DNA of 64,000 nt from Candidatus Bathyarchaeota archaeon. GTDB lineage: Archaea; Thermoproteota; Bathyarchaeia; TCS64. The notes under the pieces are model-generated. The model was given only the letters and a program-made list of their open reading frames with translations. It was not told the DNA's origin and searched no databases. A program made the translations under genes and the position numbers. The stretch covers positions 15,138-79,137 of the forward strand of contig JAFGHP010000083.1 in NCBI GenBank assembly GCA_016930055.1. Reading direction: 5' to 3'. How positions within the stretch are numbered: position 1 is the stretch's first letter; the number at the start of each line of letters is the position of its first letter. Positions 1,096 through 45,431 of this stretch are shown here, piece after piece.

Positions 1096-1769
1096 TGATG
1101 TAACTCCATTAATTCATAAATTCTTCGAAGCCTCTCCAAAGGTAATTGACCAGGAGCTACTGCTTCATGTTGATTAGGTGAAGCATATGTCCATTCTCCT
1201 CCTACCAAGGGAGATATTATTCTAGACAATACTCCCGATGTAGACATCCCGAAAGCTATGTTTCCTGGATGATTTTTTAAAAATTCTAAATAAACGATGT
1301 TGTCATAATAATTATTTGCGTTACCAACAATTTTACAAATACTACAACCAGAGTTTTTTGCTCTAGTGTACATTTCTTCCATTTCATATATTGTTGGTGT
1401 TTTATTGAAGTCATGATATGAAATTATTAATTTTGAAGATGTGCTTTGAAGATCTGATGCAACATTAAGTATGTTTGGAGTTGATGCTTCTAAATCAACA
1501 TAAGAAAAACCCGAATTACAAGCATTTATTAAAAGATTAATTCTATCTTTTTCAGGTTTTTTCCATAATCCACCATCATTTTTGATTCGTGCAGTTGCTA
1601 TTAACGGGATTTTTGTTACTTCAACGATTTTATAGGGATTAATATCCTTTTTGCTGTAATCGAAACGTATTTCTATTAAATCTGGAGATAGAGGTTCTAG
1701 TCTTTTAATCGTTTTTATTATTTTTGATATATTTAATGCTTGTAGAGTAACACAAATCTTGGGATTCAT
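1092..1769 (-). CDS. aroD: 3-dehydroquinate dehydratase, type I
   Basis: The 225-aa ORF has type I DHQase length and TIM-barrel-like sequence. It lies between aroB and aroE with 4-nt overlaps. Confidence 0.85.
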   Translation of the reverse strand: MNPKICVTLQALNISKIIKTIKRLEPLSPDLIEIRFDYSKKDINPYKIVEVTKIPLIATARIKNDGGLWKKPEKDRINLLINACNSGFSYVDLEASTPNILNVASDLQSTSSKLIISYHDFNKTPTIYEMEEMYTRAKNSGCSICKIVGNANNYYDNIVYLEFLKNHPGNIAFGMSTSGVLSRIISPLVGGEWTYASPNQHEAVAPGQLPLERLRRIYELMELHQ

Positions 1770-9923: not shown

Positions 9924-9927
9924 ACAT

Positions 9928-10383
9928 TTAATATATCTTAAGCTCTGGTTTATCCCTATCGAGATCTTTCTTGATTTGGGTAGACATAGCGTCTAATAAA
10001 CTTCGACCTTTTTTACTAATTATACGACCGTTTTTCTCAACCTTCTCCACCAACCCTGCTTTTTCCATTTGTTGAAGAGAAGTACGAATAATATTACCAC
10101 CAGCTAAGCGATGATGAGCTGGAAAATTGCCTATTCTTTTACGACCACCATATTCTTTTCTAAGTCTTTGAACCCCAATTGGACCATTAATATACAATTT
10201 TCTTAAGAGTGAGGCACTTCTAACATACCACCAATCACTTATTTGGGGAACCCTTTCCACATGGCTTCCAGTCTTCACATAATCTGCCCAGTCAGGAGGG
10301 GTCACTTCTTTAATGCTCTCTTTAATATAGCTACTAAGTTTCGAAATTAGTATATCTGCTGGCACGTCGTATACAGTCGTCAC
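9928..10383 (-). CDS. rps19e: 30S ribosomal protein S19e
   Basis: 151 aa with the S19e signature (DWWY.R.ASLLRKLY..GPIGV..LR..YGG). Confidence 0.9.
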   Translation of the reverse strand: MTTVYDVPADILISKLSSYIKESIKEVTPPDWADYVKTGSHVERVPQISDWWYVRSASLLRKLYINGPIGVQRLRKEYGGRKRIGNFPAHHRLAGGNIIRTSLQQMEKAGLVEKVEKNGRIISKKGRSLLDAMSTQIKKDLDRDKPELKIY

Positions 10384-10659
10384 GTTTATATCCCTTTTCC
10401 AGATGCTAAGTTATCGAAGTTAAACAAGCATATATGTATAGCTTTTTTACATCGAGTTTTAGCAATCCTAAACCACACAATTAAAATAAAAAGGTTTAGG
10501 CAAAAAAAGATTATATATAAAAATCTAGAATAACTTGATTAAATTTACTATTAAATATATTTTAGTTTTGGGTGAACAAATTTTATTCCAACCAACCAGC
10601 TCTCAGCGAAAGGGGTATGCACGCATATTTTTTATTAAAAGCACCTGATAATTAATACT

Positions 10660-10854
10660 ATGAAAAATAGAAAGAAGACCGCTAGATGTGAGATATGCTT
10701 ACAGCCAGCAACAAAAGATTACATGTTTAAATTAGCATATTACGAGGTTAGAAAAAAAGTTAATAAAGTGTTCTGCGGAGCATATTGCCTTAAAGACTTA
10801 GTTGAAAAAGAACTTGATAAAACGCACCTAGATGAACTGTACTCACCAGAATAA
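10660..10854 (+). CDS. small zinc-ribbon protein (hypothetical)
   Basis: The 64-aa ORF has CEIC ... CGAYC Cys pairs. It lies at the left edge of the R-M island. Confidence 0.35.
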   Translation: MKNRKKTARCEICLQPATKDYMFKLAYYEVRKKVNKVFCGAYCLKDLVEKELDKTHLDELYSPE

Positions 10855-11078
10855 TTAGTTGATGAAAACAGGATTCATTGATGATTAAAATGATCTTTAT
10901 CATAATAGCTCAATTATTTTGAAGTACTTCAACGAACCATTCAAAAACAAGTACTATGATCTTCCAGTATTTCGTTTTGCTAGAAACCATGGATGTAAAA
11001 ATTGTACAAATCAAAAATGTGACCTCAAAACTATGAAAAATTGTGAGGAAATAAGGTAGATGAGTTTATTTTATAAAT

Positions 11079-11684
11079 TTAACTTCCCCTATAAGTTGCT
11101 TTTTGAACAATTGTAAAAATCTCATCATCATTATATAAAGCATCAAGAACTTCTTTAAACATATAAGCTTCATGATTACTTGTTTTTTCTTCAATCATCA
11201 TAAGCTCGATAACATGTCCTATAAACTCAACGGAATATTCACCATATTTATCTAATTTTTTAAATCTCTTAAAATCCTTGTCTTTAGTTAATTTTAATTC
11301 ACATTTTTGCTGTTCTTCTTTTGTTGTGAAAGGTTTAATATTTTCCCACATATCAGACAGATATTTAATACACGATTTAGTTAATTTGGGACTGTGTTCC
11401 TTTTTAAGCAATAGATCAATTGCCCAATGAATATGTTGCGGAGTTCTAACTCTTTTTCTCAGCTCCTGATACTTTACAATTATATCTAAATCAGGATGGT
11501 TACCATAACTTCCTTGAAAAACACCGATAATTGTTCCATTTTTTAATCTGAATTCTTTAAACGCAAATAATTTTCTATGTTTTCCATTTCTTCCTTTTAC
11601 TGAACATTCCATCAAAATATTATCATCTGTATGTTTTATTTCTAAATCAGGTTTAAAATTTTTTGTATTTTTTAAATATTTCAA
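11079..11684 (-). CDS. hypothetical protein (R-M island; divergent from the Dam-like MTase)
   Basis: The 201-aa ORF has no recognisable family. The clean ORF shares a 114-bp divergent promoter region with the Dam-family MTase gene. Confidence 0.5.
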   Translation of the reverse strand: MKYLKNTKNFKPDLEIKHTDDNILMECSVKGRNGKHRKLFAFKEFRLKNGTIIGVFQGSYGNHPDLDIIVKYQELRKRVRTPQHIHWAIDLLLKKEHSPKLTKSCIKYLSDMWENIKPFTTKEEQQKCELKLTKDKDFKRFKKLDKYGEYSVEFIGHVIELMMIEEKTSNHEAYMFKEVLDALYNDDEIFTIVQKATYRGS

Positions 11685-33367: not shown

Positions 33368-35431
33368 TTATCGAAATAAAGCATAAATTAAGAATAGTGG
33401 TAAGAATATATTAGCAACTAGACCAATAACTGTAACCATAGTATTAAGACTTGGTCCTGCAGTGTCCTTAAAGGGATCACCAACAGTGTCCGCAATCACG
33501 GCAGCTTTGTGAGCTTCGCTATGTTTACCTCCATGATGACCTTCTTCAATATACTTTTTAGCATTGTCCCATAATCCTCCCGCATTACTCATTAATAAAG
33601 CGAAAAGTAATCCGCTGAAAATATTTCCTGCTAGATAGCCACCGAGCCCGTATACCCCAAAAATTAATCCAACCATTATTGTGACGGTTATGATAATTAT
33701 TGTTGCAGGCATCAATTCGTGTAGTGCACCAATTGTAGCAATATCAACACATTTAGCATAATCTGGAACAACACCTTCTTTTCCTTCACGTAAACCAGGA
33801 ATCTCTTTAAATTGTCGTCTAACCTCCTCAATCATACGTTGAGCATTTTTACCTACACCTAACATAAGGATTGCAGAAAAAATAGGTGGAAGAGCAATAC
33901 CAATTAACACTCCTACCATCACTATTGGATTCATTAAATCGAAAGTAATTATTTGATTTAATTGCACTTCAGCAACTTCTTTATATGCAGCTAAAATACT
34001 CAAGACAGTTAAACCTGCTGCACCAATGGCGAAGCCTTTTGTTATGGCTTTGGTTGTATTGCCAGCAGCATCTAGCTTATCTAAAATATTTATCGTTTCT
34101 TCAGTAAAACCACTCATTTCTGCAATGCCTTTAGCATTATCTCCAATAGGTCCAAAACTATCTCCTGCAATAATCATAGCCACTACACTAAGCATACCAA
34201 AAGCAGATATTCCTATACCATATACTCCATATCCAGGACCTATTGCTTCGCATAGTGTGTAAGAAATCCAGCTTCCTAATCCAATACCAACAAGTGGAGG
34301 AAAAACACTAATTAAACCATAACTAAATCCAGTAATTATAGTAACAGCTGGACCTGTAAGACTACTAGATGCTGTAAGTTGAGTTGGTGGTTTATTGGTG
34401 CTAGTGAAATATTCAGTAGTCATACCAATTATTACTCCAACAATTAATCCAACTGTACTTGCCCCCCAAAGCCTCCAATTATATCCTTGAAGATAAGTTA
34501 CAATTGAAGTCAGTATCAGATATAGAATACAAGTCACATATGTACCATTATTTAGGACTGCACCAGGATCTTGACCTTCTTTAACATTAACTAAGAAAAT
34601 TCCAATTAAAGCACTAGTTATACCTATGCCTGCAAAAATTAAGGGGAGTTCTACTAGATAACCACCTAGAATTACTCCTAAAAGCATTACAGCCATTAAA
34701 CTTGCTACGTAACTATCAAAAAGATCAGCACCCATTCCCGCACAGTCACCAACATTATCTCCAACATTATCAGCAATTACAGCAGGGTTTCTAGGATCAT
34801 CTTCTGGTAAGTCCATCTCAATTTTTCCTACAAGATCAGCTGCAATGTCAGCGGTTTTTGTATATATACCACCTCCAGCTTTAGCAAAAAGAGCCATTGC
34901 GGATGCACCGAAACTAAAGCCAACTATAATATTAGGATCTCCAGTGAAGAAATATATTGCACTTACACCTAACAGAGCAAGACCAACAACAGCTAATCCT
35001 GTAACAGCACCACCTCGAAAGGCTATTAAAAAGGCACGAGTAATACCTTTTTGTGCAGAGTGAGCGCTCCTCATATTACTATCGGTAGCTACATCCATTC
35101 CTAAATATCCGGCAAGACCAGAACAAAGTGAACCAAATAAATATGCGACCACTAAAAGGATATTATCTATTGGTGTAGTAGTTGACCAAATCGGGTGTGG
35201 TAAGAAAATTAATAGAATAATAGACATGACAACAACAAACATACCTAACATTTTATACATTCGTTTGAGGAATGCTTGAGAACCATCTTTGATCGCTTTT
35301 CCAATGAAACGGGTTCTTTCGTTTCCAGGATCTTGACCTTTAACCCACCGGAGAATATAAAGTCCGGTTAAAATTGATATGAGTGCCGAAATTGGCGCTA
35401 TTAGCCAAGCGTTATCTATTGCTATTTTAAT
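33368..35431 (-). CDS. hppA: membrane-bound proton/sodium-translocating pyrophosphatase
   Basis: The ORF has the canonical IADNVGDNVGDCAGMGADLFDSY motif and many TM helices. The ORF-track start (ATG 35260) lies inside the conserved ..AFLKRMYK.. motif. The first TM helix (IAIDNAWLIAPISALISILTGLYILRWV) is encoded in-frame upstream (35261-35452) with no ATG/GTG/TTG. GGAGGT lies 8 nt before ATA (35423-35425), so the exact 5' end is uncertain. Confidence 0.8.
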   Translation of the reverse strand: MKIAIDNAWLIAPISALISILTGLYILRWVKGQDPGNERTRFIGKAIKDGSQAFLKRMYKMLGMFVVVMSIILLIFLPHPIWSTTTPIDNILLVVAYLFGSLCSGLAGYLGMDVATDSNMRSAHSAQKGITRAFLIAFRGGAVTGLAVVGLALLGVSAIYFFTGDPNIIVGFSFGASAMALFAKAGGGIYTKTADIAADLVGKIEMDLPEDDPRNPAVIADNVGDNVGDCAGMGADLFDSYVASLMAVMLLGVILGGYLVELPLIFAGIGITSALIGIFLVNVKEGQDPGAVLNNGTYVTCILYLILTSIVTYLQGYNWRLWGASTVGLIVGVIIGMTTEYFTSTNKPPTQLTASSSLTGPAVTIITGFSYGLISVFPPLVGIGLGSWISYTLCEAIGPGYGVYGIGISAFGMLSVVAMIIAGDSFGPIGDNAKGIAEMSGFTEETINILDKLDAAGNTTKAITKGFAIGAAGLTVLSILAAYKEVAEVQLNQIITFDLMNPIVMVGVLIGIALPPIFSAILMLGVGKNAQRMIEEVRRQFKEIPGLREGKEGVVPDYAKCVDIATIGALHELMPATIIIITVTIMVGLIFGVYGLGGYLAGNIFSGLLFALLMSNAGGLWDNAKKYIEEGHHGGKHSEAHKAAVIADTVGDPFKDTAGPSLNTMVTVIGLVANIFLPLFLIYALFR

Positions 35432-35930: not shown

Positions 35931-37169
35931 TCAGTTTCTCAATACCCCTGCTCCAATTAATCTCCATCTACCACCAATTCTACGACTTATTGCTACGTGA
36001 TCAGTTTCTTCTCCACAGATAGGAATAGATAATTTTGCCTCTATGTAGTCTTTCTTTACTAAAGTAATGTCCGCCATAGTCTTTGAGGTTCCTACATTTA
36101 GTAGAAGTTTTTCTCCTTTAGCAATTTTAGCTACTGCTTCCTGTTCTTTACTACCAATAACGCTACTAAAAAGTTTAATATCAAGATTTAGCTCTTCACG
36201 AACAGGTGGTAACATGCCAGGTATTCCAGCAATACTTCCAACTAGACCATCTGATTTGGTTAAAGATGGATCAAGAGTTGTCCCAACACCTACAAGACCC
36301 CCAGGCAAAGCCTCTGAAACAGAACTATCTCCTATATATAAACTGGTAATTTCTGTAGTTAATTCTCTCATTTTGACTTTATTTTTCTCTCTAGTGGGTA
36401 AACCGGGGCGAATTTCTATTTCATCGCCTACTTTGAAGCTGCCTTGATAAATTGAACCTCCAAGAACCCCTCCCATCAGATCTTCAATTAATGTTCCTGG
36501 ATTATTCACATCGAAACTTCGAATAATATGCATTCGTGCAGGTTTATTTGGGTCTCTTTTAGGGGTTAGTAAATATTCTTGAATTGCTTGTAAAAGGAGA
36601 TCGATATTTAATTTATGTTGAGCGGAAACAGGGATTATTGGAGCATTTTCCGCAATACTTCCTTTTAAAAATTTTAATATATCAGTATAATTTCTAATCG
36701 CTTCGTCACGATTAACTAAATCGATTTTATTTTGGACCACAATAATGTTTTTTAAACCAATTATATCTATAGCTGCTAAGTGTTCGCGGGTTTGTGGTTG
36801 AGGACATTTTTCGTTTGCTGCTATAACTAATATGGCTCCATCCATAACTGCAGCTCCACTTAACATAGTGGCCATTAAAATCTCGTGACCTGGCGCATCA
36901 ACAAAACTGATTGCTCTCTTAAACTCAGTATCCGAACCGCATTTTGTACACTCTGGTGTTACAGAATAACAATCAGGTTCATCACATTCTTTACATTTAT
37001 AAATAGCAAAATCAGCATAACCTAATTTAATCGTAATGCCTCTTTTTAATTCTTCACTATGTTTTGAAGCCCATTCTCCTGTAAGAGCTTGAACTAGTGT
37101 TGTTTTACCATGGTCGACATGACCTATTGTACCAATATTAATTTCTGGCTGCTTTGGTAGTTTAGGGAT
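35931..37169 (-). CDS. eif2g: translation initiation factor 2 subunit gamma (aIF2-gamma)
   Basis: The ORF track starts at an internal Met (36875). The in-frame upstream part encodes PKQPEINIGTIGHVDHGKTTLVQALTGEWASKHSEELKRGITIKLGYADFAIYKCKECDEPDCY...APGHE (P-loop and Zn knuckle). No ATG/GTG/TTG lies between the stop at 37200-37202 and the P-loop. GGGAGG (37179-37184) is followed 9 nt later by ATC (37167-37169). Confidence 0.85.
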   Translation of the reverse strand: MPKLPKQPEINIGTIGHVDHGKTTLVQALTGEWASKHSEELKRGITIKLGYADFAIYKCKECDEPDCYSVTPECTKCGSDTEFKRAISFVDAPGHEILMATMLSGAAVMDGAILVIAANEKCPQPQTREHLAAIDIIGLKNIIVVQNKIDLVNRDEAIRNYTDILKFLKGSIAENAPIIPVSAQHKLNIDLLLQAIQEYLLTPKRDPNKPARMHIIRSFDVNNPGTLIEDLMGGVLGGSIYQGSFKVGDEIEIRPGLPTREKNKVKMRELTTEITSLYIGDSSVSEALPGGLVGVGTTLDPSLTKSDGLVGSIAGIPGMLPPVREELNLDIKLFSSVIGSKEQEAVAKIAKGEKLLLNVGTSKTMADITLVKKDYIEAKLSIPICGEETDHVAISRRIGGRWRLIGAGVLRN

Positions 37170-37362
37170 ATTTCTTCGCCTCCCTGAATCTAAATGCGAT
37201 TACTATATTACTTACACTTAAATACGTTTAGCATAACTCGATGTATATTTCTTGTTTAAAAAATACTTTTTTTAATAAAAAAAAGTATTAAAAATATGAA
37301 AATAGTGATTATTTTTATAATGATAATCGATGCATCTAAACGTAGAGTGGGAAGAGCAATAA

Positions 37363-38529
37363 TTGGATAATTATTTAATAATTTGGATAAGACTACTAAA
37401 TAGTTTAATAACCATTGCTTTTTTCCCATATTTATATTTTATTTATAAAAAAACAAAAAAACATTTTTATCTACTTTGGGGAGGAGGATTTTTACTTTAT
37501 GGTATAGGCATTATAATTAGATCAATTTTACCTACAATTGGTTTAGAAGAATCTTTAAATGCACAAATCTTTTCCTTTATTTTCACTTTATCGGGATTCA
37601 TTTTTATTATAGTTGGAATCGGGGATCTTACAAATAGGATAAAATTAATGTTATGCACTTCGATGAGCATACCATTATTTTTATCTTATTTATTTTTTAC
37701 ATCTAAACCATATGAAATTGGTAGAGCAATTTCATTAATTCCCTTCATATTCATTAGTATAAGTTTACTGTTAATTAGGAAAAACTATACTTCAAGTCTA
37801 GATTTGTTAACAATAGGATGGATAATATTAACAATTGACAATATTGGATTAGCTTTAGAATTGATTTCTGAGATATTCGTAGAAGTTTTTGCGGTCTTAG
37901 GTAAGATTATAATTTTTTTAGGTATGACTTACCCACGTTTTTCACTGCTTGTGGATGATTTTAAAAGATTCTTAATATCAGGTTTACCAAATAATTATAC
38001 CGAAAATAATTTAAAACATGTTATTTTAGTGAATTCTACTAATGCAAATCGTGAAGTAGAATTAAAATGGATTAAAGAACAAGTTGAAGAAAATAAAATT
38101 CATGGTATTCGTACAATTCTTATTTCATATCATGATTTAATTTCAATTAATGATATAAAAAATATTAGAATAGATCAAAAGGATCTTTATATTGTTCGAA
38201 TGTTAACTGGAGGAAGAATTCTGCAAGAAATATTTACTAAAGATTCTATGACTATTAACGATGATCTTAACGAACTTGATATTTTATTAAATGAAATTAT
38301 TGAATTCTCCAAAGAAAAAAAAATAAAATGTTCAGTTATTCTTTATACTCTTTCTTCACTTATTCATATTCATGGGTGGAAAAGAGTATATTCTTTCATG
38401 GTTTCAAAGTTTCAATATATTAAAGATAGTGAGATTCATGTGATTGCTTTTTATTACCCTCAAACACATGAAAATATTGCAGATATAGTAAAATTTGAAA
38501 AAATTGTAGATGATATTATTGATTTGTAA
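37363..38529 (+). CDS. membrane protein with cytoplasmic C-terminal domain (possible KaiC-associated sensor/anchor)
   Basis: The 388-aa ORF has about 6 predicted TM helices in its first 190 aa, followed by a 200-aa soluble domain. It lies upstream of a GH3-like ligase and a KaiC-like ATPase. Confidence 0.45.
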   Translation: MDNYLIIWIRLLNSLITIAFFPYLYFIYKKTKKHFYLLWGGGFLLYGIGIIIRSILPTIGLEESLNAQIFSFIFTLSGFIFIIVGIGDLTNRIKLMLCTSMSIPLFLSYLFFTSKPYEIGRAISLIPFIFISISLLLIRKNYTSSLDLLTIGWIILTIDNIGLALELISEIFVEVFAVLGKIIIFLGMTYPRFSLLVDDFKRFLISGLPNNYTENNLKHVILVNSTNANREVELKWIKEQVEENKIHGIRTILISYHDLISINDIKNIRIDQKDLYIVRMLTGGRILQEIFTKDSMTINDDLNELDILLNEIIEFSKEKKIKCSVILYTLSSLIHIHGWKRVYSFMVSKFQYIKDSEIHVIAFYYPQTHENIADIVKFEKIVDDIIDL

Positions 38530-38554
38530 ACATTCGAGGTGTGAGAGATAATCG

Positions 38555-39979
38555 ATGTCAACATTAATTAAAAAAATTTTTGTTAAAACTTTAGAAAAAT
38601 ATGCTTTAAGATTTACTTCAAAAAAGAAAATTAGTGAAGAAATTACTAAAAATATTTCAGAAAAATTAAAAAAAGCTTCAAATTCAACACTAGGGAAAGA
38701 ATTAGGGATTTCTTATAATTCAAATATAGATAAATTACCATTAACAAATTATGGTTTTTATCAAAAATATTTCGAATTTCCGAATTCTAATAGTTTATTA
38801 TATCCAATAAATGATTATGTAAAAGTATCTACTAGTGGAACTATGGGAAAACCTAAAAGTTTCCTCGTTCCAAAACCTGCTTTAACAGATAATATGCAAA
38901 AAACAGGGTTTTCTAACCTTTTCCTTTATACTCATGATGGTGAAAAAGTGACATTTGAGTATGGAGATGTAGTTTATACGAATACTCCTGGAGGAAATCA
39001 CCTTGCAGCATACAATTCAGAGATTGGAGCTAAACAAAATAAGGGTCTAGTTAAATTATGTCCAGACATTAATCTTCTTTTTAAAGATAAAGTTGAGTTC
39101 TTTATTGAAAATTATAATAAAATTGATGTAGCTTACATGCCAGTAACCACATTGATTGATGATGTTTATCCAAAAATTGGGCATCCATTTAAATTGAAAG
39201 GGTTCATAACACAAGACAGTTCTGCATGTTTTCTGAAAGAAGAAATAAAGAAAATTATTGGAAGTTACCCAAAAGTAACTTATGGTTCAACTGAAACATT
39301 AGCTTCAACTATGCCTTCAATAGAAAATCCTGGTTCTTTCTTTTTTGATTGGAGGGTATTATTTATAGAGTTAATTCCCGAAAAAGACCAGATAAAAACT
39401 GATTTCCAAACTCTAAAGGAACCCAAAGAAACATTATCTTTTTTAGATGCAGAAGTAAATAAAAAATATCAAGTTGTAGCAACTCTCTATAAAACAGATT
39501 TAACAAGATATGTAATGCCAGATATAATTGAATGCACCTGTATAGGTGACGATGTTTTAGGTTTAGAAACTCCAGTCTTTAAATATTATTCTAGATCGGA
39601 TAAAATCATTAATTTACATAATTTTACTAGGATTGGAGAACCTGAAATGTTAGAAGTCTTACTAGCATCAGGGATTAAATTCGTGGATTTTGTCGTATCT
39701 AGAGAAGTTGAAGGTTCTAGAGAGTATATGATATTATATATTGAAACGGATTCTAAAATAGATGAAACAGATCTTTATAGGGCTATTGATGAAGAGCTTA
39801 CGACTTTTGATAAAGATTGGAGAGATCTAAAGAATTACTTTAATTATTATCCTTTAAAAATCAGATTTTTACCAAAGGGAAGTTTCAATAGATATTTATC
39901 TAATAAAAAAGGTATGCCTTCTATTGACCGTATTGGTATGAAAGAAGAAAATTTAAAACAATTATTAAAACAGGATTAA
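38555..39979 (+). CDS. GH3/ANL-superfamily adenylate-forming enzyme (putative)
   Basis: The 474-aa ORF has a VSTSGTMGKPKSF motif (ANL motif A3-like) and a YGSTE motif (A5-like), plus GH3-like length. Confidence 0.5.
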   Translation: MSTLIKKIFVKTLEKYALRFTSKKKISEEITKNISEKLKKASNSTLGKELGISYNSNIDKLPLTNYGFYQKYFEFPNSNSLLYPINDYVKVSTSGTMGKPKSFLVPKPALTDNMQKTGFSNLFLYTHDGEKVTFEYGDVVYTNTPGGNHLAAYNSEIGAKQNKGLVKLCPDINLLFKDKVEFFIENYNKIDVAYMPVTTLIDDVYPKIGHPFKLKGFITQDSSACFLKEEIKKIIGSYPKVTYGSTETLASTMPSIENPGSFFFDWRVLFIELIPEKDQIKTDFQTLKEPKETLSFLDAEVNKKYQVVATLYKTDLTRYVMPDIIECTCIGDDVLGLETPVFKYYSRSDKIINLHNFTRIGEPEMLEVLLASGIKFVDFVVSREVEGSREYMILYIETDSKIDETDLYRAIDEELTTFDKDWRDLKNYFNYYPLKIRFLPKGSFNRYLSNKKGMPSIDRIGMKEENLKQLLKQD

Positions 39980-40692
39980 ACTAAGACTGGTTCTTTATTA
40001 AAAACTTCGAAACCACGATAAGTAATTGAATATCTTCTAGGTTGTTCGTCATATTTTATTCCGCGCATTTTATCTACTCTTATTGTTTTTATTAAATTAT
40101 ATTCTCTTAGATCTTTATTCAATAAGATTACTCCATCAGCTAGAAATTGTTCCATATAGAAATCTCCTTCCTGTGGACTTGTTTCTGATGTTACTATAAC
40201 ATTACATCTTATCTTTCTTAATTCTTCAAACAATTCACTAATTAAGAATCGTTTTCGTCCAGAACGAGACTCATGAATCACGAGACTTGTTAAAGGGTCT
40301 ATTACTACATTTTTTGCTTTAGTTATCTTAATTGTATCTAGCAATTTTGTTATTGATAAATTAATTAGCTCATCAGATTCTTTGTCTCTATTTTTATTTG
40401 AACCAATTTCCGGTCGGGTAAATAAATCAAGTGTTATAAGTAGACCCTTCATCTCCCAACCAGTTAGATCCCATCCAAAGGAAGCGGTGTTTTTTTTCAT
40501 ACTTTCAATTGGCTCCTCAAGGCTAGCATAGACGCATATTTCTCCTCTATGAAGCGCTTTGATCAAGTATTGTATAGAAAATACTGTTTTACCTGTTCCA
40601 GGTCCACCACATAAAAGGGTGATTTTACTTTCTGGAAATCCTCCCCCAAGCATTTCATCTAATCCTAATATCCCAGTTGGAATGAAGTTCAT
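39976..40692 (-). CDS. KaiC-like RecA-superfamily ATPase (single domain)
   Basis: The 238-aa ORF has GILGLDEMLGGGFPE, a Walker A GGPGTGKT and a Walker B hydrophobic-D (NVVIDPL), the same arrangement as archaeal KaiC-like ATPases. Confidence 0.8.
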   Translation of the reverse strand: MNFIPTGILGLDEMLGGGFPESKITLLCGGPGTGKTVFSIQYLIKALHRGEICVYASLEEPIESMKKNTASFGWDLTGWEMKGLLITLDLFTRPEIGSNKNRDKESDELINLSITKLLDTIKITKAKNVVIDPLTSLVIHESRSGRKRFLISELFEELRKIRCNVIVTSETSPQEGDFYMEQFLADGVILLNKDLREYNLIKTIRVDKMRGIKYDEQPRRYSITYRGFEVFNKEPVLV

Positions 40693-40865
40693 TTAATCAC
40701 CTTAATTTTAACGGAATTATCTTAGGAGAATAATAACTAATACAAATATATTTCTAAAATATATAAAGCCTTTATGCTATTAGTAAAAGTTAAGTTAATT
40801 GAAAATATGATTATAATTGCGAAAGGGATGAGGTTCTATTAAGAACCAAAGTAATAGGTGTCGCT

Positions 40866-41468
40866 TTGAATAAGATCAAACATATTAAATATAAACCAAT
40901 ACCTGTGAGAGATACTCTAATTGAAATAAAAGATGTTTCTGAGTTAATGTTAGATCTTGCATATTCTGCAGCACTCTTTAATAATGTACAATTAGCAGAA
41001 GAAGTTATTCAGTTAGAAAAAAAAATTGATGATTTACAATACCAGTTAAATATGAATTTAATGTTAATAACGCATAATCCGAAAGATGCTGAAGCATTAG
41101 CGGGAGTACAAAGAGTTGGAAGTTTAGCAAACACAATATCTGACGCTGCTGGAGATATTGCTAAAATTGTTTTAAAAGGATTAAATGTTCATCCAATAGC
41201 TCAAAAAGCATTTGAATTAACTGAAGAAAAATTAGATTTAATGTTTGTTTCAGAAAACTCGATAATTATTGGTCATACAGTAGACGAATTACATTTGGCT
41301 AGAAAAATAGGTGCAGATATAATTGCAATTAGAAGAGGTCAACATTGGTTAATTAACCCTGGAAAAGAGATGATTATGCCTGAGGATATGATAATAGCTA
41401 GAGGAACATTTTCGGGACTGGAAGTTTTAAAGAAAGCATCAACGGGAGAGATAGATATTATTGAGTGA
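40866..41468 (+). CDS. PhoU-like / TrkA-C (RCK_C) domain regulatory protein, paralog 1
   Basis: The 200-aa ORF has an N-terminal helical PhoU-like region and a C-terminal TrkA_C-like barrel (..IIAIRRGQHWLINPGKEMIMPEDMIIARG). Confidence 0.55.
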   Translation: MNKIKHIKYKPIPVRDTLIEIKDVSELMLDLAYSAALFNNVQLAEEVIQLEKKIDDLQYQLNMNLMLITHNPKDAEALAGVQRVGSLANTISDAAGDIAKIVLKGLNVHPIAQKAFELTEEKLDLMFVSENSIIIGHTVDELHLARKIGADIIAIRRGQHWLINPGKEMIMPEDMIIARGTFSGLEVLKKASTGEIDIIE

Positions 41469-42054
41469 TGACGTTAATCGTATAGAAAAAGCAACCCAAA
41501 TTCTCGTAGAATTAAAAGATACGTCTGAATTAATGATGGATTTAGCCTATTCTTCAATTCTGTTAAATAATTCGTACTTAGCCGAAGAAGTTCAAATACT
41601 TATGGAAAAAATGAGCCAACTTCATTTCGATTTTGATTATATAATTTTGTCATGTAAAATAGAAAAAGATGATGTTGGTGGTTTAATAGGTCTACTTAGA
41701 ATTGGAACAGCTTCAGAAAAAATTGCAGATGCTGCTTCAGAAATAGCACAAATTGTTTTAAGAGGAATTGAACCCCATCCAGTTTTATCTATGGTTATAC
41801 AAGAAGCCGAAGAAACAGTGGAGAGAGTTACTGTTCCAGAAGGATCTCCAATAGTTAATAAGACATTAAAAGAAAGTCAAATTCCTGAAGAAACAGGTAT
41901 GTGGGTTTTAGCTATCCGCCGTGGGGATAGATGGATTCGACCTAAAGCAAATACAGTAATTGAAGCGAGGGACATCATTGTTGCAGCAGGTTATGCTGAT
42001 GGAGAAACCGATTTCAAACAATTAATTTGTGGGTGTGAAAACCCCTTAGACTAA
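41461..42054 (+). CDS. PhoU-like / TrkA-C (RCK_C) domain regulatory protein, paralog 2
   Basis: The 197-aa ORF is collinear with the preceding ORF (IELKDTSELMMDLAYSSILLNN..., VLAIRRGDRWIRPKANTVIEARDIIVAAG) and overlaps it by 8 nt. Confidence 0.55.
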   Translation: MSDDVNRIEKATQILVELKDTSELMMDLAYSSILLNNSYLAEEVQILMEKMSQLHFDFDYIILSCKIEKDDVGGLIGLLRIGTASEKIADAASEIAQIVLRGIEPHPVLSMVIQEAEETVERVTVPEGSPIVNKTLKESQIPEETGMWVLAIRRGDRWIRPKANTVIEARDIIVAAGYADGETDFKQLICGCENPLD

Positions 42055-45225: not shown

Positions 45226-45259
45226 ATCAATAATAAAATAATGTCCAATTTAATAAAAG

Positions 45260-45333
45260 ATGGGCCGGGCCGGACTTGAACCGGCGACCTCCGCGGTGTG
45301 AACGCGGCGTTCCACCAAGCTAGACTACCGGCC
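45260..45333 (-). tRNA. tRNA-Val (anticodon CAC)
   Basis: The GC-rich 74-nt minus-strand sequence is GGGCCGGTAGTCTAGCTTGGTGGAACGCCGCGTTCACACCGCGGAGGTCGCCGGTTCAAGTCCGGCCCGGCCCA. It has a 7-bp acceptor stem, a 5-bp anticodon stem with loop UUCACAC (CAC anticodon) and a T-arm GCCGG/TTCAAGT/CCGGC. CCA is not encoded and there is no intron. Confidence 0.75.
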
Positions 45334-45431
45334 CACAACACATGTAGCTAAAGAAACAAAATAAATTCCTTTTCATAAAAATTAAATTGTAAAGTCAATT
45401 TTCATTAATTAGAACAAAAGATTGTTTAAAA

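Follow-up and report, generated by a model that had tools for sequence, protein, structure and literature searches.

A candidate sensory module of Bathyarchaeia joining a seven-transmembrane protein with a degenerate RecA/KaiC-fold domain, a GH3-type ligase and a KaiC-like ATPase

Little is understood of how archaea transduce signals, and a role as hubs has been proposed, rather than shown, for KaiC-like ATPases and their inactivated paralogs. A 64,000-nucleotide stretch of DNA from a Candidatus Bathyarchaeota archaeon (assembly GCA_016930055.1, contig JAFGHP010000083.1, positions 15,138 to 79,137 of the forward strand), referred to here as the window and low in guanine plus cytosine (~32%), carries adjacent genes for a membrane protein, an adenylate-forming ligase and a single-domain KaiC-like ATPase. 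Comparison with related loci identified these as a conserved three-gene unit, made up of an obligate, co-inherited pair of membrane protein and ligase with KaiC as a looser third partner. We tentatively read the unit, with confidence a little short of even, as a sensory module restricted to Bathyarchaeia, in which the seven-transmembrane (7TM) domain of the membrane protein would sense a ligand, its dead KaiC domain would couple to KaiC, and the ligase would make or inactivate the ligand. The membrane protein is called the receptor below, and the three open reading frames (ORFs) are arranged in the window as follows.

37363-38529, + strand: whole receptor ORF, 388 aa (ORF call)
37363..37935, + strand: 7TM domain of the receptor, residues 1-191 (AlphaFold2 (AF2) model, hydropathy, fold matches)
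37936..38529, + strand: cytoplasmic linker and P-loop-less RecA/KaiC-fold domain ('iKaiC-like') of the receptor, residues ~192-388 (fold matches)
38555-39979, + strand: GH3-like adenylate-forming ligase of the ANL superfamily, 474 aa (Pfam, profile, AF2 model, Foldseek, motifs)
39976-40692, - strand: single-domain KaiC-like ATPase, 238 aa (PF06745, phmmer, motifs)

The receptor protein is identical to that of NCBI locus tag JW865_07860, and the KaiC ORF is convergent with the ligase ORF, with a 4-nt overlap. The initial annotation had named five ORFs here, these three and a tandem PhoU/TrkA-C pair, and all five were found where it had placed them. A Pfam scan also confirmed the core translation genes that it had given as flanks, with aIF2-gamma and a PIN_9/Fcf1 protein on the left and S6e and aIF5B on the right.

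Conservation of the neighbourhood was examined by three routes. A receptor pattern, run against one genome for each GTDB species, returned 18 loci, 17 from Bathyarchaeia and one from a genome binned as Krumholzibacteriaceae, and in these the ligase gene was adjacent wherever the contig allowed and KaiC was adjacent in all but L018. Retrieval from the ligase side gave three divergent homologs, with the receptor adjacent in 3/3 and KaiC in 0/3, and retrieval of a distant receptor subfamily gave the full trio in 3/3 loci, although the proteins there were only 25-27% (receptor), 36-38% (ligase) and 41-47% (KaiC) identical. When all ORFs were clustered over 25 non-redundant loci, the ligase was present in 25, the receptor in 24 (the last, L019, is cut and holds only the receptor 3′ end) and an adjacent KaiC in 19, and nothing beyond these three genes recurred universally. 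Since the three are adjacent across deep divergence and gene rearrangements, they are functionally linked. As far as sampled, the receptor-ligase pair is restricted to Bathyarchaeia and some unclassified metagenome contigs, and the receptor homologs form 77 clusters at 90% identity, every named one of which is from Bathyarchaeota. The expectation of a coherent set of five genes was thus borne out for the trio within Bathyarchaeia as sampled and failed for the PhoU/TrkA-C pair.

Four gene orders were observed (R, receptor; L, ligase; K, KaiC): R> L> <K, R> <L <K, L> R> <K and <K ... L> R>. In all of them, a receptor or KaiC gene of the same orientation lies less than ~30 nt away from the ligase gene. 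Two broader genomic contexts, both of housekeeping genes, are seen among the loci, context I with the order aIF2-gamma - trio - S6e/aIF5B, as in the window, and context II with the order methyltransferase/prolyl-tRNA synthetase (ProRS) - trio - Fer4/183-aa protein/M20. Between L003/L009 and L007/L013-L017, which have identical flanks (ProRS ... KaiC), the ligase gene alone is flipped in place, a change that would switch its co-transcription from the receptor to KaiC. Distance matrices of receptor and ligase were strongly correlated (r=0.94) and resolved the same clades, while those of KaiC against either protein gave r ~0.6, with the KaiC of L002 and L004 displaced in the tree. The metagenome-assembled genome (MAG) QDN_4 encodes three receptors, two ligases and two KaiCs (L009, L011), and this multiplicity fits signalling systems, for which several copies are typical.

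Several lineage-specific features were noted around these loci. In L009 (9980-14776), one ligase lies between two paralogous receptors (R> L> R> <K), of which the second belongs with a different clade (L013/L014/L016), and a further complete trio is present on another contig of this MAG (L011). In one lineage, seven context-II loci (L003, L007, L009, L013, L016, L017 and L019) share a conserved, divergently oriented block downstream of KaiC that encodes a Fer4-domain protein, a protein of 183 aa without Pfam match and an M20/M25/M40 amidohydrolase; this block is absent from context I, including the window. In plants, GH3 conjugates are hydrolysed by M20 amidohydrolases (ILR1/IAR3), and by analogy the context-II enzyme could reverse the ligase reaction. 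In two of three loci of the distant subfamily (L025:6001-6327 and L026:800-1195), the gene immediately upstream of the ligase encodes a PadR-family transcription regulator, which may be a local regulator or an output of the module. Two contigs carrying the module are binned as bacterial, L013 (DATKWN010000017.1) as Krumholzibacteriaceae and P0146/L022 as 'Patescibacteria group'; the former has the archaeal context-II order and the latter carries aIF5B/S6e, and both are probably misbinned.

The receptor was described initially as a 388-aa membrane protein with six N-terminal transmembrane (TM) helices and a soluble tail. That architecture is real, with a corrected helix count, as the AF2 model, a hydropathy scan with seven hydrophobic segments and the fold alignment all give seven TM helices, followed by a beta-alpha-beta domain in the model. 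The model was built from 74 sequences and has a mean predicted local distance difference test score (pLDDT) of 79.8, reaching 83-90 for the greater part of the soluble domain, and a predicted template modelling score (pTM) of 0.58. In Foldseek searches, ~190 receptor residues aligned to 7TM folds resembling G protein-coupled receptors (GPCRs), with class C GPCR bundles outscoring rhodopsins, and bacteriorhodopsin and other microbial rhodopsins were also among the matches. Positive charges are found in loops 29-34, 90-94 and 139-141, which by the positive-inside rule implies an N-out/C-in topology that would place the RecA-like domain in the cytoplasm.

Within the 7TM domain, polar residues are conserved in TM1 (R10, N13, T17), TM2 (R53) and TM6 (N160, together with W153), and in TM7 E/D174 is conserved and K181 is invariant across the receptor family. 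These residues, which are kept in the distant receptor subfamily, are concentrated in the outer half of the 7TM bundle, where R10, N13, T17, R53, N160, E/D174 and K181 would make up a putative outward-facing ligand pocket. Sequence searches placed the domain in no described family. The whole receptor of the window had no Pfam or NCBIfam match even at E<=10, and 31 family members and consensus sequences gave only sub-threshold hits to DUF5985, DUF7504 (E 0.013-0.05) and 7TMR-DISM, the last (PF07695, 7TMR-DISM_7TM) with a best E of 0.032, in 2/31 members, and 1.2 for the consensus.

The soluble tail of the receptor is supported at the level of fold as a degenerate RecA/KaiC-like domain. Foldseek of this C-domain ranked PH0250, UvsX and KaiC CI/CII first, with a probability of 1.0, and its structural matches also include Csm2, DMC1 and FlaH. 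The Walker A motif [AG]xxxxGK[ST] was found in 0/89 receptor family members, and there is little conservation in the loop that follows beta1. In the Walker-B-like strand, IILYTLSS, a Tyr replaces Asp, an equivalence taken from secondary-structure order. The tail has lost its P-loop, along with the Glu pair used in catalysis and the Asp of Walker B. It has invariant residues of its own (D258, D300, Y343, H369) and others that are near-invariant, including R279, S331, H335, H337, E379 and D383. The initial suggestion that the tail is reminiscent of the degenerate RecA-like domains accompanying KaiC was therefore right at fold level, given the fold matches and the missing P-loop.

The more specific proposal of a DUF835-like tail was not upheld. 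DUF835 and MEDS are inactivated KaiC domains with a recognised signalling role in archaea, in connection with KaiC hubs (PMC5847659), and neither DUF835 (PF05763) nor MEDS (PF14417) matched at E<=10 in Pfam/NCBIfam searches with the whole protein, the tail alone or the family consensus. Comparison of the tail with its KaiC partners was not significant by hhalign, global or local, or by pairwise protein comparison, and a profile search of PDB sequences with the tail found nothing relevant. When 1.84 billion representative proteins were searched exhaustively with hmmsearch, the receptor family itself was all that came back, as 83 hits at 50% identity clustering, nearly all ~380 aa in length and of the same architecture. 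Because this search returned just 83 hits, the receptor family is, by sequence comparison, narrow and isolated, and its dead domain stands outside any described iKaiC family. Donation of an Arg finger by the dead domain to KaiC was considered as well and rejected, as a comparison of secondary-structure order puts the KaiC 'KxRG' hairpin (K208, R210) in a C-terminal region that is absent from the receptor domain.

The KaiC-like protein, by comparison, is predicted to be catalytically intact. It matched PF06745 over its full length (190.7 bits against a cutoff of 26.6, E 3.3e-56), and phmmer hits to solved structures included KaiC at E 4e-43 and, also among the closest, PH0284 at E 3e-34. The Walker A motif GGPGTGKT, the SLEE/LEE catalytic Glu pair and the Walker B motif VVIDPLTS are present in 17/17 module-linked KaiC orthologs, in agreement with its first description as a minimal KaiC-like ATPase with Walker A and B motifs. 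None of the NCBIfam equivalog cutoffs, among them those for thermo_KaiC_1 and KaiC_arch_3, was reached, which leaves the protein outside any assigned KaiC subfamily.

The ligase matched the Pfam models GH3_M (23.8 bits) and GH3_C (23.6 bits) at threshold, the cutoff being 23.6, and the N-terminal GH3 model PF03321 was not matched by the window ligase and was faint in some homologs. The ligase family profile matched plant GH3 structures (GH3.15, E 1.8e-6; JAR1, E 2e-3). An AF2 model (pLDDT 89.4) showed an ANL/GH3/PaaK fold, and Foldseek of this model retrieved the PaaK-like BT_0428, PaaK1 and plant GH3s with E 1e-18 to 1e-15 and TM-scores of 0.62-0.69, so that PaaK-type acyl-CoA ligases and plant GH3 enzymes fit the fold about equally; the best matches are the PaaK-type aryl/acyl-CoA ligases (BT_0428, PaaK1/2). 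The GH3 motifs I-III, defined as SSGTxxGxxK, YGSSE and YRxGD (PMC12493201), are invariant or near-invariant in 51 homologs (TSGTMGKPK, T93-K101; YGSTE, Y243-E247; RYxxPD, R318-D323), so the earlier call of a GH3/ANL enzyme from its SGTxGKPK and YGSTE motifs holds. As all three nucleotide-binding motifs are present and essentially invariant, the ligase is predicted to be a catalytically competent adenylate-forming enzyme of the GH3 type, acting as an acyl-acid amido synthetase or an acyl-adenylate former, and PaaK-type CoA-ligase chemistry is possible from its fold.

On this anatomy, which is solid from the arrangement of the genes through their folds and motif status to their co-occurrence and co-inheritance, a mechanism for the proposed sensory module can be drawn. 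The 7TM domain would bind a small amphipathic or carboxylate ligand, and a ligand-driven conformational change would pass through the dead KaiC-like domain, which would dock onto or co-assemble with the cognate KaiC and modulate its ATPase or autophosphorylation output. The ligase would carry out ATP-dependent adenylation of a carboxylic acid followed by conjugation to an amine, and would thereby create or inactivate the ligand read by the receptor; its product or its substrate is probably the signal. A small-molecule signalling module, as first put forward for this locus, is thus a reasonable reading once the PhoU/TrkA-C pair is left out of it.

Several points weigh against this reading. Ligand sensing, the contact between the iKaiC-like domain and KaiC, the ligase substrate and reaction direction, and the downstream output are all steps that we infer. 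The kinship of the tail with KaiC is seen in fold, hhalign and HMMER find nothing, and other members of the RecA superfamily (DMC1, Csm2, SsaN) score nearly as well for the tail, in a receptor model of medium confidence. Four loci with enough sequence to either side of the pair (L018, L020, L022 and L024) have no adjacent KaiC, and given its moderate co-variation with the other two proteins, KaiC may belong to the module more loosely or be exchangeable. Transcription factors or other output components showed no consistent linkage to the module in the loci, PadR being present in only 2/3 distant-subfamily loci. Finally, the module is often found among housekeeping genes (translation factors, ProRS), so its synteny could in part be inertia.

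A more specific version of the sensory module, which we regard as rather unlikely, is an archaeal hormone-like circuit in which the ligase would make an N-acyl or aryl-acyl amino-acid ligand for the 7TM receptor, bound in the R10/R53/K181 pocket and signalling through the pair of dead and live KaiC domains. If true, this would be an archaeal counterpart of the perception of jasmonoyl-isoleucine (JA-Ile), made by JAR1, or of N-acyl-amide/GPCR signalling, and possibly a quorum-sensing or autocrine system of Bathyarchaeia. In a more extreme sub-variant, the ligase would load a carboxylate cofactor covalently onto K181.

An unlikely alternative that still deserves weight is that the genes have no sensor role and serve lipid or N-acyl-amino-acid synthesis and membrane handling, with the GH3-like enzyme N-acylating an amino acid, the 7TM protein accepting, further modifying, flipping or exporting the amphipathic product, and KaiC energising or regulating the process through the RecA-like docking domain. 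This would take literally the precedent of OlsH, the only characterised prokaryotic GH3-like enzyme, which N-acylates ornithine with a fatty acid to give N-acyl amino acids (PMC12493201). The OlsH/OlsI operon arrangement, with its alpha/beta-hydrolase O-acyltransferase, was not seen, as only the 7TM protein and KaiC recur beside the ligase in the 25 loci and no OlsI-like alpha/beta-hydrolase or other acyltransferase does, in clustering that included no OlsI-specific scan. The 7TM domain has no internal 3+1+3 repeat signal and no transporter-family match. A PAQR/ceramidase-type hydrolase was also rejected for this domain, as the TM His/Asp metal site of those enzymes is not conserved and there is no conserved TM His. 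The presence of multiple receptors per genome, and of two receptors with one ligase in L009, suits signalling better than bulk lipid synthesis.

It is improbable as well that the genes take up and trap carboxylic acids ('vectorial acylation') or detoxify them, aromatic or lignin-derived acids being examples. The 7TM protein would here be a channel or transporter, the ligase would trap its substrate by adenylation and conjugation to CoA or an amino acid, and KaiC and the iKaiC-like domain would regulate the flux. The best Foldseek matches of the ligase, being PaaK-type, agree with this, as do the PadR genes upstream in two distant-subfamily loci, since PadR-family regulators are often responsive to phenolic acids, and the M20 amidohydrolase downstream in context-II loci, which could undo the conjugation. 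However, the ligase is GH3 rather than PaaK at the sequence level, no catabolic pathway genes recur with the module in the 25 loci, M20 and PadR are lineage-restricted neighbours, and a GPCR-like 7TM domain fused to a dead RecA-like domain is no known transporter architecture.

The tandem pair to the right of KaiC was also evaluated as a possible part of the module.

40866-41468, + strand: PhoU + TrkA_C paralog 1, 200 aa (Pfam)
41461-42054, + strand: PhoU + TrkA_C paralog 2, 197 aa (Pfam)

These two proteins are 36% identical to each other, and both domains score above the Pfam thresholds in each, as the initial annotation had proposed. A five-gene module, in which the pair would work with KaiC, the ligase and the membrane protein, is nonetheless very improbable. 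In its favour, KaiC and the pair share a divergent intergenic region of 173 nt in the window, and the pair lies within ~3 kb of the trio in three lineages (the window, L005 and L022), being adjacent in the window and L022. These are the only three such lineages, and in L005 the 3 kb between pair and trio hold unrelated genes, a sulfate adenylyltransferase-like ORF and a phosphatase-like ORF (both judged by eye). In L008 and L010 the flanks of the window are kept, the pair is missing and KaiC abuts S6e. No locus of context II or of the distant subfamily has the pair, and this distribution fits residual synteny with the region of S6e and aIF5B. Because it is missing at most trio loci, including L008 and L010 with the same flanks, the PhoU/TrkA-C pair is a syntenic neighbour and not a component of the module. 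Just past the pair in L022, a locus that lacks KaiC beside its receptor and ligase, lies a multi-domain gene resembling a nonribosomal peptide synthetase (9926-11410; AMP-binding, PP-binding, Thioesterase).

A rhodopsin-like or covalent-chromophore photo- or chemoreceptor, with a cofactor carried on K181 and possibly activated as a carboxylate by the ligase, is likewise highly unlikely: the invariant mid-TM7 Lys, E/D174 two turns above it and the invariant TM6 Trp, all retained in the distant subfamily, the microbial rhodopsins among the fold matches and the precedent of the ANL ligase pCL, which activates the cofactor of photoactive yellow protein (PYP), speak for it, but there is no Bac_rhodopsin match in Pfam at E<=10 despite that Lys, rhodopsins are outscored by class C GPCR bundles, neither the TM3 motifs nor the retinal-pocket motifs of rhodopsins can be recognised, the equivalence of K181 with the Schiff-base Lys is only a candidate one, and the hosts are mostly archaea of dark anoxic sediments.

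Further scans of the window added little to the module itself. An Rfam scan found no riboswitch or structured RNA in or near it, and a sigma-70 promoter and terminator scan gave counts at the level of shuffled sequence, with a model that is uninformative for an archaeon. In a PADLOC scan for anti-phage defence systems, the receptor, ligase and PhoU proteins had no match; KaiC matched 'mad8' weakly in its P-loop region (E 9e-6), which was regarded as generic ATPase similarity, and a defence role was rejected.

Three observations concern other genes of the window. At the 5′ end of aIF2-gamma (36876-37199, - strand), the frame runs intact from an upstream stop codon, with no ATG, GTG or TTG before the G1 motif GHVDHGKT, and gene callers give a shortened protein of 314 aa. 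Where the window reads AGA, the L005 and L010 orthologs read GTG (V-Y/D-x-D-I-P); a GGAGG lies ~8 nt upstream of an in-frame ATC in the window, and an independent Logan assembly (L001) has the same sequence. Possible causes are a start codon of non-canonical type, an error in sequencing or a mutation. ARAGORN called a 92-nt tRNA-Tyr at 1623-1714 (+ strand) within an opposite-strand ORF (1092-1769), not reported by Rfam at the gathering threshold, which is a false positive or else an archaeal tRNA with an intron, and ARAGORN and Rfam agree on a tRNA-Val at 45259-45335 (- strand). A multi-pass membrane ORF of 630 aa (33368-35260, - strand), found two genes upstream from the module, resembles a membrane H+/Na+-translocating pyrophosphatase, as judged by eye from the sequence, and a homolog with 60% identity lies ~3.7 kb beyond aIF2-gamma in L005.

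The sensory module, as read here, is a compact case of archaeal signalling, with a membrane input (a GPCR-fold 7TM domain), an adaptor (the dead RecA/KaiC domain), an ATPase and a dedicated enzyme. Its hosts, the Bathyarchaeia, are abundant, uncultured sediment archaea whose environmental sensing is essentially uncharted. The ligase can be assayed in vitro, which offers a route to the ligand of an orphan archaeal receptor family, and if the reading is true, GH3 chemistry would extend into archaea, beyond plant hormone control and bacterial amino-lipid synthesis. A literature search found no description linking GH3 with KaiC in archaea, in a search that did not extend to the supplementary neighbourhoods of the 2017 KaiC-hub paper.

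Among the closest known systems are the archaeal KaiC/iKaiC (DUF835, MEDS) signalling hubs of Makarova, Galperin & Koonin 2017, as summarised in PMC5847659. In both, an intact single-domain KaiC is encoded beside a P-loop-less RecA/KaiC domain fused to a sensory input domain, both are restricted to archaea, and several copies are possible per genome. The features expected of an iKaiC protein are present in the receptor, namely a RecA/KaiC-like fold, loss of the nucleotide motifs and association with an active KaiC (19/25 loci, including the distant subfamily). Unlike the hubs described, the module has a dead domain outside the described iKaiC families, a GPCR-like 7TM bundle as input and an obligate GH3-type ligase partner. 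The module therefore appears to fit the KaiC/iKaiC signalling theme, to which it would add an undescribed dead-domain family, a GPCR-fold 7TM input and an obligate GH3-type ligase.

The ligase shares the ANL/GH3 fold and all three nucleotide-binding motifs with the GH3 amido synthetases (plant JAR1 and GH3.x; bacterial OlsH). Plant GH3s make (JA-Ile) or inactivate (indole-3-acetyl-aspartate, IAA-Asp) a receptor ligand, and the planctomycete enzyme makes an N-acyl amino acid. Unlike the plant enzymes, the module ligase is ~100 residues shorter and reaches only the GH3_M and GH3_C models, and those barely; its fold is equally near to PaaK-type CoA ligases, and its partner is the 7TM/KaiC pair and not OlsI or a soluble hormone receptor.

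The receptor resembles 7TMR-DISM proteins, GPCRs and rhodopsins in its seven TM helices, N-out/C-in topology, intramembrane polar network and cytoplasmic output domain. It differs from 7TMR-DISM in having no significant sequence match (7TMR-DISM_7TM at E 0.03-1.2, and DUF5985 below cutoff), no extracellular DISMED-type domain, and an output that is a dead RecA/KaiC fold in place of a kinase, cyclase or HD-GYP domain. In the loss of its ATPase motifs and its position beside an active family member, the receptor C-domain parallels other non-catalytic RecA-fold paralogs, which modulate an active ATPase of the RecA family, such as the Rad51 paralogs Psy3-Csm2 and ArlH/FlaH of the archaellum; unlike these, it is tethered to the membrane through a 7TM domain and stands apart from any DNA or archaellum context.

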